64,000 bases of DNA from a virus (lineage: Duplodnaviria > Heunggongvirae > Uroviricota > Caudoviricetes). The notes beneath the pieces were generated by a model. It did no database searches. It saw only the letters and a list, made by a program, of their open reading frames with translations, and was not told the DNA's origin. Shown here piece by piece: positions 20,834 through 60,557 of this stretch. How positions within the stretch are numbered: the stretch's first letter is position 1; each line of letters starts with the position of its first letter. Where the stretch lies: positions 22,146-86,145 of IMG/VR virus record IMGVR_UViG_3300045988_145627; one strand, 5' to 3'. The position numbers and the translations under genes are program-made.

Positions 20834-20908
20834 GATGGTGTAGCTCAGCGGTAGAGCAGTTGGCTGTTAACCAACTGGTCGGTGGTTCGAATCCGTTAAC
20901 CGGCACCA
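20834..20908 (+). tRNA. tRNA-like sequence, anticodon GTT (Asn); acceptor and T stems are imperfect, so possibly a pseudo-tRNA
   Basis: Canonical D-arm gctcagcggtagagc, perfect anticodon stem gttgg/ccaac with loop ctGTTaa, T-loop ttcgaat and 3' CCA; acceptor stem has 2 mismatches and T stem 3 G-U pairs. Confidence 0.4.
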
Positions 20909-21121
20909 ACACAACAGGAAAGAGCATTGAGAACCGCCGAGACTGCACTGTTTGAAGCGTAAGTCCGTGCAAACGTCATACAGTGCTCTTTTCGTTGTGG
21001 TGAATGCGGCTAAGCGCACGCGGGGAAATGGTTATATTGATCCTTTGTGATGTCTATTGGCTCCGTCCACGGTGGATAACCAGCCAAAGGACACCGGGAA
21101 GCACCCGGCACCATAACAATT

Positions 21122-21208
21122 GGAGAGTAGGGAGCATGGTGCTCAAGCGGTCTTGAAAACCGTCCCATTGCGCAAGCGATGATGGTTCGATTCCATTACT
21201 CTCCGCCA
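21122..21208 (+). tRNA. tRNA-Ser (anticodon TGA), long variable arm
   Basis: 7-bp acceptor stem ggagagt/actctcc, anticodon loop ctTGAaa, 17-nt variable arm, T-arm gatgg-ttcgatt-ccatt, discriminator G plus encoded CCA. Confidence 0.6.
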
Positions 21209-21403: not shown

Positions 21404-22738
21404 TCATGCCAAATTATCCAGATTTCTTTTCTTTTGTTCAATTATATTTCTCGCGCCAGAAAAAATTTTACTCAAAATAATTGATTTGCTTGCTCTATTA
21501 TTAAGATGTAACAACGCGCTATAAAATACATAGTTATCTATTTTACTATTTAAAGTATTCCCAAGCTTCCCGTCATATATGCTATTAATAGTATTAAAAT
21601 ATACATGTTCAGGACCTATATTACAAATACCCCTATCAACTCGCTTTAAATAATGTTTAACTAAAGAAATAGCATCTTCCTTATCATTAATAACATAAAG
21701 TCCTGAGCGTTTACCCAGTTTGCTGTTCGAGAGCAATTTACAACCTACAAGCTCACTTAACGTATCTTCAAAATTTTTCAACTCTTTGTCGGCGTTTTCC
21801 AGATAATGCTCAATCTCTTTCTCCATATTACTTATTAGAGAATTAAATTCTGCTCGTAACAAATCACCACCAGGTGATTTATAACTCCATAAAATTGAAT
21901 TGGTAATACGTACTACGTCAGATACTTCTGGTTTCTCTGAATAGTTTTTGTATCTAGTGCAAATAATGCTGTGCTTTATATATTCTCTAACTAATGATCG
22001 ATAATCCCTTTCGAAAAGGGTTTTGACATCTAGTCTTCCATTGCTTGTTGTTATTAGTGTGGTATTTAAAACTGGGTCGCCTTCAAAAAAATTATATTTA
22101 TTTAGTAATCGTTTTAGCTTGTGTGAATTATGTGATGTTTCGCCATAATAATTTAGCCCAAAAATAGCAATTATTAGCATAACATCAGGAGTGATGAAAT
22201 GTCGTAATTGCTCGGCATAAACTTTTTTCTCTTCGATTTTCGAAGATGGAGAGTAAAAACCTTTGTCTATATATTCTAATATTGAAACAATATTACTAAC
22301 ATAACGTATAAAAACTTGATTCATTACAACGGAACCATAAACCTGATGCAAATAATCTACTCTCAAGTTGTTTTTTATTTTTTCCCCTGTGCTAGATGAT
22401 AACTCTTCTTTTACCTGCCCAAGTAGCTTTTCGTGGTGCTCCAGCAATGTTTTAAACCATTGTTCAAATGATGATTTTCTTGCCTCAGTTAATGAATCTG
22501 ATGTTATCTGGACAGCTTTCATAGCTGCTTTCGCACTTTTCTTTGCTTCATAAGCGTTCCATGCTGTAGCACAAAAAGCTGCCGCCGTGATGCAACTGGT
22601 AAAAATAGAAATCCTATCTGCAACATTCAAGCTCCAGAACCAATCAGACGATGAAATCAAAACCACAGATATTACGGGAACAATGAAAATCAAAACAGGC
22701 ATGTATGTACTCGCTCTAATAGTTATTAGTCGAGGCAA
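21404..22738 (-). CDS. Hypothetical membrane-anchored protein, low-GC (444 aa)
   Basis: Two N-terminal hydrophobic helices followed by ~380 aa Lys/Asn/Tyr-rich soluble region; opposite strand to neighbours. Confidence 0.5.
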   Translation of the reverse strand: MPRLITIRASTYMPVLIFIVPVISVVLISSSDWFWSLNVADRISIFTSCITAAAFCATAWNAYEAKKSAKAAMKAVQITSDSLTEARKSSFEQWFKTLLEHHEKLLGQVKEELSSSTGEKIKNNLRVDYLHQVYGSVVMNQVFIRYVSNIVSILEYIDKGFYSPSSKIEEKKVYAEQLRHFITPDVMLIIAIFGLNYYGETSHNSHKLKRLLNKYNFFEGDPVLNTTLITTSNGRLDVKTLFERDYRSLVREYIKHSIICTRYKNYSEKPEVSDVVRITNSILWSYKSPGGDLLRAEFNSLISNMEKEIEHYLENADKELKNFEDTLSELVGCKLLSNSKLGKRSGLYVINDKEDAISLVKHYLKRVDRGICNIGPEHVYFNTINSIYDGKLGNTLNSKIDNYVFYSALLHLNNRASKSIILSKIFSGARNIIEQKKRNLDNLA

Positions 22739-57475: not shown

Positions 57476-57533
57476 TTGCTATACATAAAACCAAATGCAA
57501 AAATAGGTAATCACTTACCTATCGAGAAAGAAG

Positions 57534-58127
57534 ATGATTGCAGCCGAAAAAATCAAACAGCGAAAGCGCGACAACTCTCTTCGTGACCTCTGGAGAACAC
57601 CTGATTGGCTGTTTTCTGCCATTCAACGTTATCTTGGAGTGACATTTGATGTTGACGTTGCCTGCAACAAGGACAATGCAAAGCTGCCTAATTTCATAGG
57701 CGTTGAGCGCGATGCTTTGAAATCTGAATGGGGGCAGCCAGGTACAATTGCCTTCCTCAATCCACCCTACTCCAAAATCTCCCCCTGGATTGATGCGGCT
57801 ATACGTGAGCAGGCTCGCGGAGTTACAACAGTGATGCTAATTCCTCAATCCCTCGATACAAAGTGGTATGAGCGTGCAACAGAGTGTGCGAATGAGACGA
57901 TTATTCTGTCTGGTGGCCGCGTAGCGTTTGTCGAGCCTGACGTCAATTTGGGTCAGGTAGAAGTAAACATCAACCCCGGTGGCAGTATGCTCGTTGTTTT
58001 TCGAGGATTCTGTCAGGACGCTGGGCACTCTATAAGCAAGATCCCTTTGGACGTCATGAAAAGTCTGGGAGGGTATGATCCTGCGAATGTGATCAGGAAA
58101 AAAAGACCATCAAAGAAGGCTGCTTAG
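57534..58127 (+). CDS. dam: Orphan DNA N6-adenine methyltransferase (phage Dam-type)
   Basis: N-terminal WRTPDWLF and catalytic NPPYS motif in a ~200-aa protein; no adjacent restriction gene. Confidence 0.65.
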   Translation: MIAAEKIKQRKRDNSLRDLWRTPDWLFSAIQRYLGVTFDVDVACNKDNAKLPNFIGVERDALKSEWGQPGTIAFLNPPYSKISPWIDAAIREQARGVTTVMLIPQSLDTKWYERATECANETIILSGGRVAFVEPDVNLGQVEVNINPGGSMLVVFRGFCQDAGHSISKIPLDVMKSLGGYDPANVIRKKRPSKKAA

Positions 58128-58312
58128 TTTGTTCTGGCGTCTGTAATTAGCCTGCTTCTGTATATATAAATAACTACATATTAATTATTAATATACGGAA
58201 GCAGGCTGTTTTGTATCAGAGACTCCAGACCTGAACATCACTACAGAATCCACTAGAACCCCTTCCCAGACGCTTTAAAATCGATTTTATGAACCACTTT
58301 AAGGAAACCAAC

Positions 58313-58543
58313 ATGTCATACCCGACTAATGTCGTTGCGCTCGTAGAGAGCGATTTTCTGGCCCAGGCTCGTGAAATGATGAAAGATCGTGAGCAGGCTT
58401 TCAACTTGTACGAGTGGGCAATTAAGTGCTTGCATCTTGGCGAGCATCGCGAACTTGTTGAACAGCTTTTAGGTGAGTTGATCAATGAGGTGTTTGCCTT
58501 GAATGTTCAACTACATGGTCGAGAAAATAATCAATCACAATGA
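58313..58543 (+). CDS. Hypothetical small protein (~76 aa)
   Basis: ATG with AAGGA SD (ORF-track frame starts at 58289). Confidence 0.35.
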   Translation: MSYPTNVVALVESDFLAQAREMMKDREQAFNLYEWAIKCLHLGEHRELVEQLLGELINEVFALNVQLHGRENNQSQ

Positions 58544-59125
58544 TAGATAAGTACAAACTATTCATAAAGTGAATTGTAAGTGCTAAGATATGATAGTTTC
58601 CAGTCGTAGACTGGAGGCTCGACCTGATGGGTGGGGGTAAGCGTCACTGGCGTCAGGTTTAAAAAAGCTCACTACCAGCGTAGAACCGGTGCCGTATAGG
58701 TGTCGGGGAAGGGGGAACCAAAGTGAGCAGAGACAAGGGTCACTTTATGATTGTCGAGTCTGGGGTGTTTCGAGAGGTTGAATCCAGTACTCCCCTTCAT
58801 AAAGTGTGGGAAGATCTCGGTTCTGGGGTGCTGTCATCCATAACTTCCCAAGTCTAAGCTGGCAGTAGACTTAGACCATAGCTTTTCAGGTTATGAAACG
58901 ACCAGGTTGGTGAGGAATTTTATACTCACCTCCCTGGGAGAGTATTACCTGAAAAGACAACCTCTCACTTCGTTCGAGGTGAACTTCACTCACTTCGTTC
59001 GTTCAGTTCAGGTTTATAAAAACCTGTTCTGGGAAGTAATTTGTTTATTTTAATAATTATTAACACGCACGCGTGTGCGCACGCGCGAGGAAAAAATCGG
59101 CGCGGCGCTTGATTCAGGAGTTTAT

Positions 59126-59719
59126 ATGACGACGAAGACACCAGCCCGATCGCAAGCAAAAACTCGCAAAAAAGCCAAAAACAAAAATTCTCCCCGCACC
59201 AATCCCACAACGCCTGTCGTAGAGTTCAATCCCCAGCTCAAAACCGTGAAAATCTTTAGTGATGGCTCTTGCCTTAAAAATCCGGGTGGCCCGGGCGGTT
59301 ACGGTATCGTTCTCCAGTATCGTGGTGAGGAACGCGAGTTCTCAGATGGTTTTCATAGCACCACCAATAACCGCATGGAGATGATGGGCGCACTTATCGG
59401 GCTGGAGCGTTTGAAATATCCATGCAACGTTATTTTGTACTCTGATAGCCAGTATCTGAAAAACGGCATGACACAGTGGATGAAATGGTGGAAACGTAAT
59501 GGATGGATGACTTCTGATAAAAAACCGGTAAAGAATGTTGATCTGTGGAAACGTCTGGATGAGGCCGCAAGTCGACATAATGTTCGCTGGAAGTGGGTTA
59601 AAGGTCACGCCGGGCATCGTGAAAATGAAATATGTGATCGACTCGCGAAGATCGCAGCTTTTTCAGCAGCAGATATGCCTCACAAGAAAGATATTGGTTT
59701 TGTTTATAACAAGTGGTAA
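59126..59719 (+). CDS. rnhA: Ribonuclease HI
   Basis: [74 protein letters not shown] closely match E. coli RNase HI as I recall it; start placed at the ATG with AGGAG SD (ORF-track frame begins at GTG 59075). Confidence 0.85.
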
Positions 59720-59864
59720 GTAAGTGTTTACCTATCATTTTAAATCATGTATCTTATCAGCGTCAGGATGACAATGTGTCGGTAAGACACAGTTCCAGGA
59801 TGGAACGAGAAAGGCGGCTGGCAATCGCCAGCCGCAACTCTTTCTGACATTGGATGGAGTCCAC

Positions 59865-60359
59865 ATGGCACGTCAAACCTATTTCACTTCTGCAACTAAA
59901 CGTCCTCGTTCTTTACGTCAAATTTTGGCCGAATTGTTTAGCGGTCGTGTTATGTCACGTCTTGATGAACTAGAGACTACCGTTCGGTTGCTGAATGAAC
60001 GTTTAGATAATCAAGCGTCAGTTGTTGCGAACGTGGGGGCGATTGTTGCCTCTGGTTCTTCACGCGAAGCGAAAAGTACACGGCCTTTAGTGAAGGAGAA
60101 AAACAACAAGGACAGTTCGAATGGAAAATTTTCAAAGAAAGAGGCTGAAACCAATGGCCTACGTTCTCATTATAGTTTTACTGGCGACGGTAGCCGTTCC
60201 AGCCGGCCAGAGCCTTTTGATGCCGGGTTCATCCATCACCACACCTCCGTCGACGACAATTACCACCACTACAGTAGAGCGTCCTGTCACTCTGGATGGG
60301 ATGACGGTGGATGCGATACCTCAAGTTCATCCGGTTACTCAGGATCATGCTGTGACTAA
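59865..60359 (+). CDS. Hypothetical protein; C-terminal third looks non-protein-like and overlaps an alternative frame
   Basis: N-terminal ~90 aa plausible (coiled-coil LDELETTVRLLNERLDNQ); overlapping +1-frame ORF 60121-60372 encodes signal-peptide-like MAYVLIIVLLATVAVPAGQS plus Thr/Pro-rich segment. Confidence 0.3.
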   Translation: MARQTYFTSATKRPRSLRQILAELFSGRVMSRLDELETTVRLLNERLDNQASVVANVGAIVASGSSREAKSTRPLVKEKNNKDSSNGKFSKKEAETNGLRSHYSFTGDGSRSSRPEPFDAGFIHHHTSVDDNYHHYSRASCHSGWDDGGCDTSSSSGYSGSCCD

Positions 60360-60368
60360 GGCGGTTGT

Positions 60369-60557
60369 ATGAACTGGTTTTCAAATCACTTTGGAAAAAT
60401 TTGGCTGGCAATTCTTGCCCTCATGGCCGCCGGTTGGGTATCGAACATTATAAAACTTGTTTGCTCTGGCGATCTCCAGTTTCAGGCTGGCATGACCTTG
60501 GCTCGTGTAGTTGGGATTTTTGTTTTTCCAGTCGGTTCGGTACTTGGTTATTTCTGA
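60369..60557 (+). CDS. Hypothetical small membrane protein (62 aa)
   Basis: Two hydrophobic segments (IWLAILALMAAGWV; VVGIFVFPVGSVLGYF). Confidence 0.3.
   Translation: MNWFSNHFGKIWLAILALMAAGWVSNIIKLVCSGDLQFQAGMTLARVVGIFVFPVGSVLGYF

Follow-up and report, generated by a model that had tools for sequence, protein, structure and literature searches.

The window analysed in this study is a 64,000-nt stretch of a virus of the class Caudoviricetes (IMG/VR record IMGVR_UViG_3300045988_145627, positions 22,146 to 86,145), and the subject of this report is its interval 58544-59125, which lies between a small open reading frame (ORF) and the gene for RNase HI (rnhA). We report that positions 58596-59040 on the plus strand of this interval are, with high probability, an independent gene for a structured non-coding RNA (ncRNA). 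A prediction made from the sequence alone (the original prediction) had suggested either a structured ncRNA or a second origin, of lytic type, whose RNA primer would be processed by the adjacent RNase H. The first of these is upheld by conservation above that of the flanking genes, by the fold and covariation above controls, by a strand asymmetry of G·U pairs, by a conserved promoter and by published RNA sequencing (RNA-seq) data. Going further, we lean slightly towards the full statement that this is a free-standing gene for a structured, trans-acting and protein-binding ncRNA of ~445 nt that belongs to the lysogenic state. No paper describing an RNA at this locus was found in the literature, and a preprint on a 49-kb phage-plasmid proved to deal with an unrelated element.

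Distribution and conservation of the element

The interval and its flanks showed 98-99% identity to Escherichia phages CMS-2020a, Cyrano and PhiR41_1, and ~80% identity to Salmonella phage SSU5 and several Klebsiella phage-plasmids, and the window was therefore identified as part of an SSU5/pHCM2-type phage-plasmid of ~108 kb. The common gene order at the locus is dihydrofolate reductase (DHFR), AAA ATPase, a gene of unknown function, DnaQ-like exonuclease, another gene of unknown function, Dam-type methylase, a 76-aa ORF, the gap of ~580 bp and RNase HI. Outside the E. coli lineage the match begins at window position 58617 with 88-92% identity, while the longer flank reaches only ~80%. In pairwise comparisons the RNA core (58620-59040) was 95.2% identical in SSU5, as against 75.7-81.5% for the flanking dam, small ORF and rnhA; the corresponding values were 91.1% and 74.9-76.4% for Klebsiella pJN2-26, and 94.5% and 75.3-78.4% for Cronobacter. 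The protein genes on both sides evolve faster than the core, and a block of ~200 nt within it (58787-58985) is nearly invariant.

A distant-mode search of PLSDB found the interval in 687 plasmids, with matches in Klebsiella (310), Escherichia (195), Enterobacter (88), Salmonella (49), Citrobacter (24) and Cronobacter (10). Among complete E. coli genomes, 232 of 5426 (~4%) carried the element, which was plasmid-borne in all but two places, and no annotated feature covered it in the E. coli records listed among these. Plasmids bearing the element were typed by a RepA-type replicon (IncFIB or rep_cluster_763). Scanning of the genome collection for wider relatives yielded two Kluyvera loci, and a pattern scan of metagenomes returned 120 loci, only five of which were true, all of them close relatives. 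An apparent distant homologue scoring 35 bits (L169; loci are cited by such L numbers throughout), from the Logan assembly of SRR8137545, was rejected as a bisulfite-converted copy in which nearly every C was read as T. This E. coli-type locus came from a bisulfite library that had been assembled like native DNA, and it also yielded a false protein cluster at 72% identity (P0026).

Secondary structure and covariation

We aligned 64 distinct versions of the element, taken from viral contigs, plasmids and genomes and including L157-L161 at only 68-72% identity. The plus strand taken as a single sequence gave a fold z-score of -4.7. RNAalifold returned 97 pairs for the 64 sequences, 32 of them with compensatory double substitutions, and in a model of 141 pairs 97.9% of the cells were paired on the plus strand and 87.7% on the minus strand. 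This model contained 33 pairs changed on both sides, compared with 5-8 when the partners were slid by 1-3 columns, and its covariation score of 0.142 (0.02-0.04 when slid) was reached by none of 500 shuffles, so that the comparison of relatives suggested as a check on the original prediction came out in favour of a conserved structure. At least ten helices bear compensatory changes, and the helices are retained in the distant homologues L157-L161 and L170 (68-72% identity) and in L168. The RNA was assigned to the plus strand because G·U cells (959) far exceed A·C cells (42).

The 5'-terminal hairpin (58596-58618) differs in sequence from lineage to lineage with the pairing retained, three of the six pairs of helix 1 being changed on both sides; its arms are CCAGUC/GACUGG, CCGGA/UCCGG, GAUUUCGA/UCGAAAUC, GCUGGCAGAU/AUCUGCCAGC or GCUUCCAGC/GCUGGAAGC. 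Helix P1 (58621-36 with 58642-59) contains the invariant strand GAUGGGUGGRGG and also invariant G·U pairs, and shows changes from AU to GC in 18 sequences, CG to UA in 15, UA to AU in 5 and AU to GC in 12. The long-range helix P2 (58667-73 with 58722-28), within which lie a variable hairpin (58686-58706) and the G-rich strand GGGGAAGGGGGAACCAAA, has changed from UA to CG in 23 sequences, with eight U·G intermediates, and in L168 a matched deletion of 1 bp has occurred on both of its strands (GCUAC/GUAGC). It is followed by a long helix (58741-64 with 58783-806; helices 9 and 10) with an apical stem at 58769-82 and eight pairs changed on both sides, and by two stem-loops (58807-13/58844-50, enclosing 58826-30/58835-39, and 58852-61/58866-76; helices 11, 13 and 14) in which 100% of the cells are paired and eight pairs are changed on both sides. 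A further long helix (58882-95/58943-56) encloses the hairpin 58902-14/58925-37 with its variable AU-rich loop, and here CAGG/CCUG is replaced by CUGG/CCAG in the L157 group.

Towards the 3' end lie twin hairpins, with stems CCUC/GAGG (58961-64/58976-79) and UGAACU/AGUUCA (58980-85/59005-10), both of whose loops show CACUUCGUUCG. The second stem has three compensatory pairs in the L157 group (GAAACC/GGUUUC), and the loop motif C-R-C-U-U-C-G-Y-U-C is retained in L157 and L168. This twin-hairpin domain (58961-59010) also has an alternative fold. The junction strands of the molecule are G-rich and near-invariant.

Several features listed in the original prediction find their place in this structure. 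Its three hairpins were located at 58600-58614 (CCAGTC-GTA-GACTGG), 58852-58858/58870-58876 (GTCTAAG/CTTAGAC) and 59009-59026 (CAGGTTT-ATAA-AAACCTG), and its two repeats at 58561 and 58796 (ttcataaagtg) and at 58965-58976 and 58990-59001 (tcacttcgttcg). The latter repeat is conserved and placed in two hairpin loops. The former is confined to the E. coli lineage, one copy overlapping the -35 hexamer described below and the other being the 3' strand of a helix, and is a coincidence. The G-runs noticed there were likewise real, the interval containing five runs of at least 4 (8.6 per kb, compared with 1.45 per kb window-wide, a six-fold enrichment).

Expression

RNA-seq data for the Cyrano-carrying strain E. 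coli LF82 have been re-analysed by Misson et al. (PLoS Pathog 2023, PMC9928086). The Cyrano annotation places a 44-aa protein, CYRAN_81, inside the element (window 58723-58857; L166:2158-2292), and CYRAN_81 is among the genes for which that study gives 12 times the prophage median in overnight LB culture (PMC9928086). According to the S1 data of that study, fragments per kilobase per million (fpkm) in overnight LB were 113 and 121 for CYRAN_81, 10.3 and 8.8 for CYRAN_80 (the small ORF), and 6.0 and 10.9 for CYRAN_82 (rnhA), and the log2 values over five conditions ranged over 6.8-10.35, 3.1-5.8 and 2.6-5.0, respectively. The Cyrano segment, which is ~98% identical to the window, thus stands in LB at 12-14 times both neighbours, in line with the transcript that the original prediction would have at this locus. 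The highest CYRAN_81 value in these data was obtained in macrophages at 6 h (log2 10.3, compared with ~5 for both neighbours, or ~35 times), where the signal rises ~11-fold, and the CYRAN_81 profile tracks that of the putative repressor CYRAN_45. Because the counts on CYRAN_81 are far above those on CYRAN_80 and CYRAN_82, the data point to a discrete transcript in the plasmid state, little of which runs into rnhA.

The same data set (PMC9928086) contains a top-expressed gene elsewhere in Cyrano. CYRAN_43 (OV696614.1, 40268-40822, minus strand), annotated as a hypothetical protein beside the integrase and the putative repressor, reached ~7000 fpkm, 723 times background, and may be another RNA gene or a moron.

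Predicted promoter, putative operator and transcript ends

A predicted extended -10 promoter of sigma-70 type was found at 58561-58589 on the plus strand, consisting of TTCATA (58561-66), a 17-nt spacer ending in TGc (58581-83) and TAAGAT (58584-89). Right behind the stop codon of the small ORF, all lineages share one arrangement, namely a palindrome, a weak -35 (TTCATA, TTTAAA or TTTACN), a 17-nt spacer, which ends in TGn in six of eight lineages, and a -10 of the form TAnnAT, followed 7 nt further on by a purine and then immediately by the 5' hairpin. The spacing from TAnnAT to the hairpin is fixed in diverged lineages with TAAAAT, TAGAAT or TAACAT, and also in the class-2 elements described below (TATGAT or TATCAT). 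Judging from this arrangement, transcription would start near G58596.

The palindrome at this promoter is a degenerate copy, GATAGATAAGTACAAACTAT (58543-58562), which abuts the -35 hexamer, is centred near -43 and is a putative operator; in the SSU5/pHCM2 lineage the copy is perfect (GGTAAGTACTTACC). The core motif of the 20-bp palindrome ATAGGTAAGTAnTTACCTAT occurs at 14 sites in the window, compared with 1.39 expected, a number reached in none of 100 shuffles. Sites lie at 2535, 6756, 12141, 20065, 24854, 26216, 34272, 43255, 47954, 52670, 57506 and 59719, together with the degenerate one at 58546, and the good matches are mostly just upstream of plus-strand genes. ATAGGTAAGTAnTTACCTAT has the appearance of an operator spread over the genome and bound by a dimeric regulator, much like the C1 operators dispersed in P1. 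The palindromes found at the promoter of the RNA in sister lineages are different ones.

At the 3' side, sequence conservation stops at CUGGGAAGUAA (59040), after which come a variable U/A-rich stretch and a GC-rich tract. The 3'-terminal hairpin (59003-59032; UCAG-UU-CAGGUUU...AAACCUG-UU-CUGG; helix 20, three pairs changed on both sides), with CUGGGAAGUAA and the variable tract, which is U-rich in most lineages, makes 59003-59062 on the plus strand a possible terminator of non-canonical type. The GC-rich segment (59063-59109, plus strand) comprises a small hairpin (59063-75) and a strong one (59077-59108) whose loop is A-rich. SSU5 and Klebsiella retain the strong hairpin under a changed sequence, L007 and L010, which lack rnhA here, retain its left arm, and the segment may be either a terminator of the RNA or a hairpin of the rnhA 5' untranslated region (UTR). 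The 3' end of the RNA is placed between about 59040 and 59112, and the transcript would be up to ~515 nt long if it ended near 59109.

The GC-rich segment includes the alternating purine-pyrimidine tract that had been read as prone to form Z-DNA and as abutting the start of rnhA. The tract is real (ACACGCACGCGTGTGCGCACGCGCG, 59063-59087), and no alternating run elsewhere in the window is as long (the runner-up has 15 nt), nor was its length attained in 200 shuffles (maximum 22). It measures 25 nt rather than 23, and the ATG of rnhA at 59126 stands 38 nt past its end. Z-DNA is not needed to account for it, because the tract is explained by the small hairpins and the left arm of the GC-rich hairpin.

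Comparison with known RNA families

A covariance-model scan had been proposed as a check, and no Rfam family was found for the element at either stringency used. In a permissive scan of 57500-60500 with Rfam 15 (4227 models) the best hits had E = 0.08-0.97, all far below gathering and none inside 58596-59040, and at the gathering threshold the window and a further 44.5 kb of the genome yielded only a tRNA. By the generic marks of a structured ncRNA, the element has compensatory changes above controls, strand-specific G·U pairs, a promoter recognised by comparison and a transcript seen in RNA-seq that gives neither strand nor ends. We rate it as a new family within a known descriptive kind, closest in kind to ROOL, GOLLD and OLE and a member of none.

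With ROOL, GOLLD, OLE and raiA the element shares a length of several hundred nucleotides, many covarying helices, near-invariant junctions, carriage on phages or mobile elements, abundance and the lack of an obvious target. It differs from them in having no match to their sequences or structures, in its own operator-flanked promoter and lysogenic-state expression, and in its occurrence in phage-plasmids of Enterobacterales rather than in Firmicutes and related groups; ROOL and GOLLD multimerise. CsrB/RsmZ and 6S RNA are stable, abundant, trans-acting RNAs with repeated loop motifs, which is the mode proposed here. Unlike CsrB/RsmZ, for which at least seven GGA motifs in loops are expected, the element has few loop GGA in its predicted structure and no GGA-loop array, CACUUCGUUCG, with two copies, being its only repeated loop motif, and unlike 6S RNA it has neither the rod nor the central bubble.

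Proposed function and alternative explanations

In the reading that we favour, an extended -10 sigma-70 promoter, with its -35 abutting a dispersed palindromic operator, would drive the RNA from near G58596; the RNA would begin with a protective 5' hairpin, and transcription would mostly halt before rnhA. The RNA would act in trans as a scaffold or decoy, binding a protein in a manner that depends on its fold. The twin apical loops with the same 11-nt sequence may form a bivalent site for a dimeric partner, the near-invariant G-rich junction strands may contact a conserved phage or host component, and the RNA would help to maintain or regulate the plasmid-prophage state, not to prime DNA synthesis. 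This scaffold or decoy reading was preferred because of the twin identical loops and the near-invariant G-rich junctions; taken by itself, the trans-acting, protein-binding mechanism is put forward only tentatively.

Several points weigh against this interpretation. The twin loop is matched over 11 nt in the ribosome-binding region of a small ORF (L167:13103), which leaves room for a base-pairing mode. The compensatory cells are mostly from few lineages (the five L157-type sequences and a Klebsiella clade), and since many come from these two clades the independent covariation events are fewer than the cells. The 3' domain shows two competing folds. Mosaic rows in the alignment (L096, L110 and L111) reveal recombination inside the element, which may inflate its apparent conservation. 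The expression counts refer to an annotated ORF of 135 nt, in libraries of uncertain strandedness, and give the ends and strand of the transcript no more than indirectly. A stricter consensus promoter scan did not list the promoter, and no canonical terminator directly follows the core.

That the element is not an RNA gene at all, and is instead a decayed or tiny protein gene (CYRAN_81) or a DNA element (for instance a site of packaging or of single-strand initiation, or an array bound by protein), we consider highly improbable. Cyrano does annotate a 44-aa ORF here, and the hairpins could also form in single-stranded DNA. As the original prediction had it, no ORF of at least 60 codons is contained in 58544-59125, the largest being of 48 aa (58907-59053, plus strand) and 44 aa (58723-58857, plus strand); a 74-aa minus-strand ORF (58986-59210) and the GTG-extended frame of rnhA (59075) reach in from the rnhA side. 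In 21 of the 64 distinct sequences the CYRAN_81 frame has a frameshift, a stop or no start codon, its variable columns are spread over the codon positions as 24/24/21, so that no codon periodicity is seen, and the indels of the element are not multiples of three. CYRAN_81 was accordingly rejected as a real micro-protein, and the decayed protein gene that would have spoken against the original prediction was not found. The conservation exceeds that of real genes, the 959 G·U cells are on one strand only, and the transcript is discrete. The element is without annotation in the records examined, except as the 44-aa protein or under an over-long RNase H gene: the RNase H annotation of SSU5 (SSU5_090, L002:4844-5608) starts ~180 nt too far upstream, inside the RNA, and both this start and CYRAN_81 appear to be mis-annotations.

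Behind the protein-binding RNA we rank, in this order, an RNA of the immunity type that acts by base-pairing, a primer or origin of replication, and a cis-acting leader. As an immunity RNA of the kind of P1 c4 or P4 CI, its loops would pair with repeated sites in mRNA and keep lytic or anti-repressor genes off. The lysogenic expression in step with the putative repressor CYRAN_45, the operator at the promoter, the two loops of the same sequence, reminiscent of the paired complementary segments of c4, and the 11-nt match to the ribosome-binding region of a small ORF (L167:13103) all speak for this, and the sequence-unrelated RNA found in the same slot of a sister lineage (see below) is the pattern of a specificity determinant. 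The element and the RNAs P1/P7 c4, P4 CI and N15 CA also share lineage-specific replacement at a fixed locus of a plasmid prophage, with paired recognition loops in a product of lysogeny, and the operators of P1 C1 are dispersed over the genome like the one beside the element's promoter. Those RNAs, however, are of ~70-100 nt, processed from a longer transcript and provided with clear nearby targets, whereas the ~445-nt core is five times longer than known immunity RNAs, has no Rfam C4 match and shows near-invariance over the whole molecule, which antisense action does not need. Over the ~108 kb searched (the window together with L167), complementarity to the RNA extends to 12 nt at most, as expected by chance, and the 11-nt match, the only one of the twin loop, is itself about what chance would give (~0.2 expected). 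Exact and two-mismatch searches for the complement of the twin loop, and an all-against-all complementarity scan, also gave only chance-level matches. A simple antisense mode is argued against by the lack of long complementarity to the rest of the genome, and we regard an immunity RNA as unlikely. Somewhat less probable still is a ColE1-like origin, in which the RNA would be a pre-primer that forms an R-loop near the AT-rich 59040-59062, is cut by the phage RNase HI and primes lytic or plasmid synthesis. Here a structured, G-run-rich transcript of ~450-500 nt is indeed aimed at an AT-rich stretch followed by the RNase HI gene, within a DNA-metabolism cluster (DHFR, DnaQ-like exonuclease, Dam). 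ColE1 RNA II, at ~550 nt and highly folded, is comparable in length, folding and G-runs; the element, for its part, points towards an AT-rich stretch, has an RNase HI gene adjoining and has a small helical protein gene beside it. Cyrano, moreover, is present at 5.5 copies per chromosome (PMC9928086). The rnhA gene, however, is missing from this position in L007, L010, L011, L157-L161, L170 and L171 with the RNA intact, being replaced by an unrelated minus-strand gene (L007), betT (L010), other ORFs (L011, L157-161 and L170) or Gabija-like genes on the opposite strand (L171), and it is thus a neighbour of the RNA gene, though not an obligate one. There is no conserved antisense promoter and no sign of an overlapping antisense RNA I, the sole minus-strand promoter-like site (58602 to 58573) being directed away from the RNA and no RNAI model of Rfam giving a hit, and the model of the small ORF matches no PDB fold with E below 6. 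The replicon typing is of RepA type (IncFIB or rep_cluster_763), quiescent lysogens express the RNA alongside the repressor gene, the cumulative GC skew climbs from 50 to 64 kb without a turn, and the AT-rich stretch varies in sequence and length. ColE1-like priming is argued against because rnhA is replaceable, the antisense partner is lacking, the typing is RepA, expression is quiescent-state and the skew has no turn, and the RNase H-primed lytic origin of the original prediction is accordingly not supported and rather improbable. The last of the three, a cis-acting leader that would form a long 5' UTR of rnhA and the downstream early genes and act as attenuator, antiterminator or sensor, appears more improbable again: the RNA and rnhA are read in the same direction, a GC-rich hairpin stands just before the rnhA Shine-Dalgarno sequence, and the more than 10-fold drop in transcript between RNA and rnhA is compatible with attenuation, but the downstream gene varies by lineage (betT, unknown ORFs, opposite-strand Gabija-like genes), no riboswitch or leader family matched, and 445 near-invariant nucleotides are far above known leaders.

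A bolder view than the protein-binding RNA is that the element founds a new class of large ornate RNA with a core function, expressed in lysogeny, in SSU5/pHCM2 phage-plasmids. Its fold in three dimensions, and not base-pairing or priming, would then be what acts, whether in a ribozyme, in a particle that assembles itself or in a new ribonucleoprotein of which it is the RNA subunit. Large ncRNAs with this much conserved structure are rare, and those that have been solved are usually ribozymes or the cores of ribonucleoprotein machines. We think this view rather unlikely, though less so than the alternatives weighed above.

A class-2 element in the same slot

Relatives of the pCAV1099-111 type (L082:3226-3760, L083:3226-3762 and L162-L165) carry a different ORF-free stretch of ~470 nt between the small ORF, which is 46-51% identical, and RNase H. 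This class-2 element shares the promoter layout and shows compensatory changes of its own, and its loci gave no Rfam match. It was rejected as a homologue of the RNA of the window, neither BLAST nor a covariance model of the class-1 5' domain showing any homology between the two classes, and class-1 and class-2 RNAs are treated as separate families.

Neighbouring genes and downstream variation

The small conserved ORF (58313-58543, plus strand, ATG at 58313, 76 aa) directly precedes the RNA gene in all relatives found. It corresponds to phrog_5343, of unknown function, has no Pfam or PADLOC match, and is represented by only 29 clusters in a set of 5.8 billion proteins, all of them from enterobacterial phage-plasmids. 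Its AlphaFold model consists of three helices (pLDDT 80). On the other side, rnhA (59126-59719, plus strand) encodes an RNase HI of 197 aa (PF00075, E = 1.2e-45) with a basic N-terminal extension of ~40 aa. A defence-system reading of the locus was rejected, since PADLOC gave nothing for the neighbours beyond an orphan methyltransferase.

Cargo varies just downstream of the RNA and includes a Gabija-like helicase with an OLD-type ATPase (L171:3395-5231), betT (L010:2266-3436) and a gene of 414 aa (L007:2239-3483); in L007 and L010 alike, the left junction falls at one point within the A-rich loop of the GC hairpin. A Moellerella wisconsensis plasmid (L084:3678-4649) has an extra ORF of 113 aa after the small ORF, a ~970-bp unannotated gap and a type I restriction gene. 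After rnhA, window positions 59737-59835 contain two CAGGAUG(A/G) motifs and then a strong terminator hairpin (59814-59835), and a weak CsrB-like Rfam hit (E = 0.08) falls at 59761-59806, outside the element; this intergenic region could be a small CsrA-binding RNA. The phage-plasmid also encodes tRNA-Asn and tRNA-Ser (window 20834-21208), and PhiR41_1 has in addition a full-length gene annotated as methionyl-tRNA synthetase (L167:9060-11093).

Significance

Carriers of the element include pHCM2 of S. Typhi and plasmids with KPC or OXA-48 resistance genes. The function of the RNA is directly testable, because the hosts allow routine knock-outs, pull-downs and structure probing. If the view of a new ornate class were true, this would be the first such RNA in the genetically tractable E. 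coli, Salmonella and Klebsiella, and one that is switched on in macrophages. The RNA could be relevant to the way in which phage-plasmids stay in the plasmid state or exit from it.

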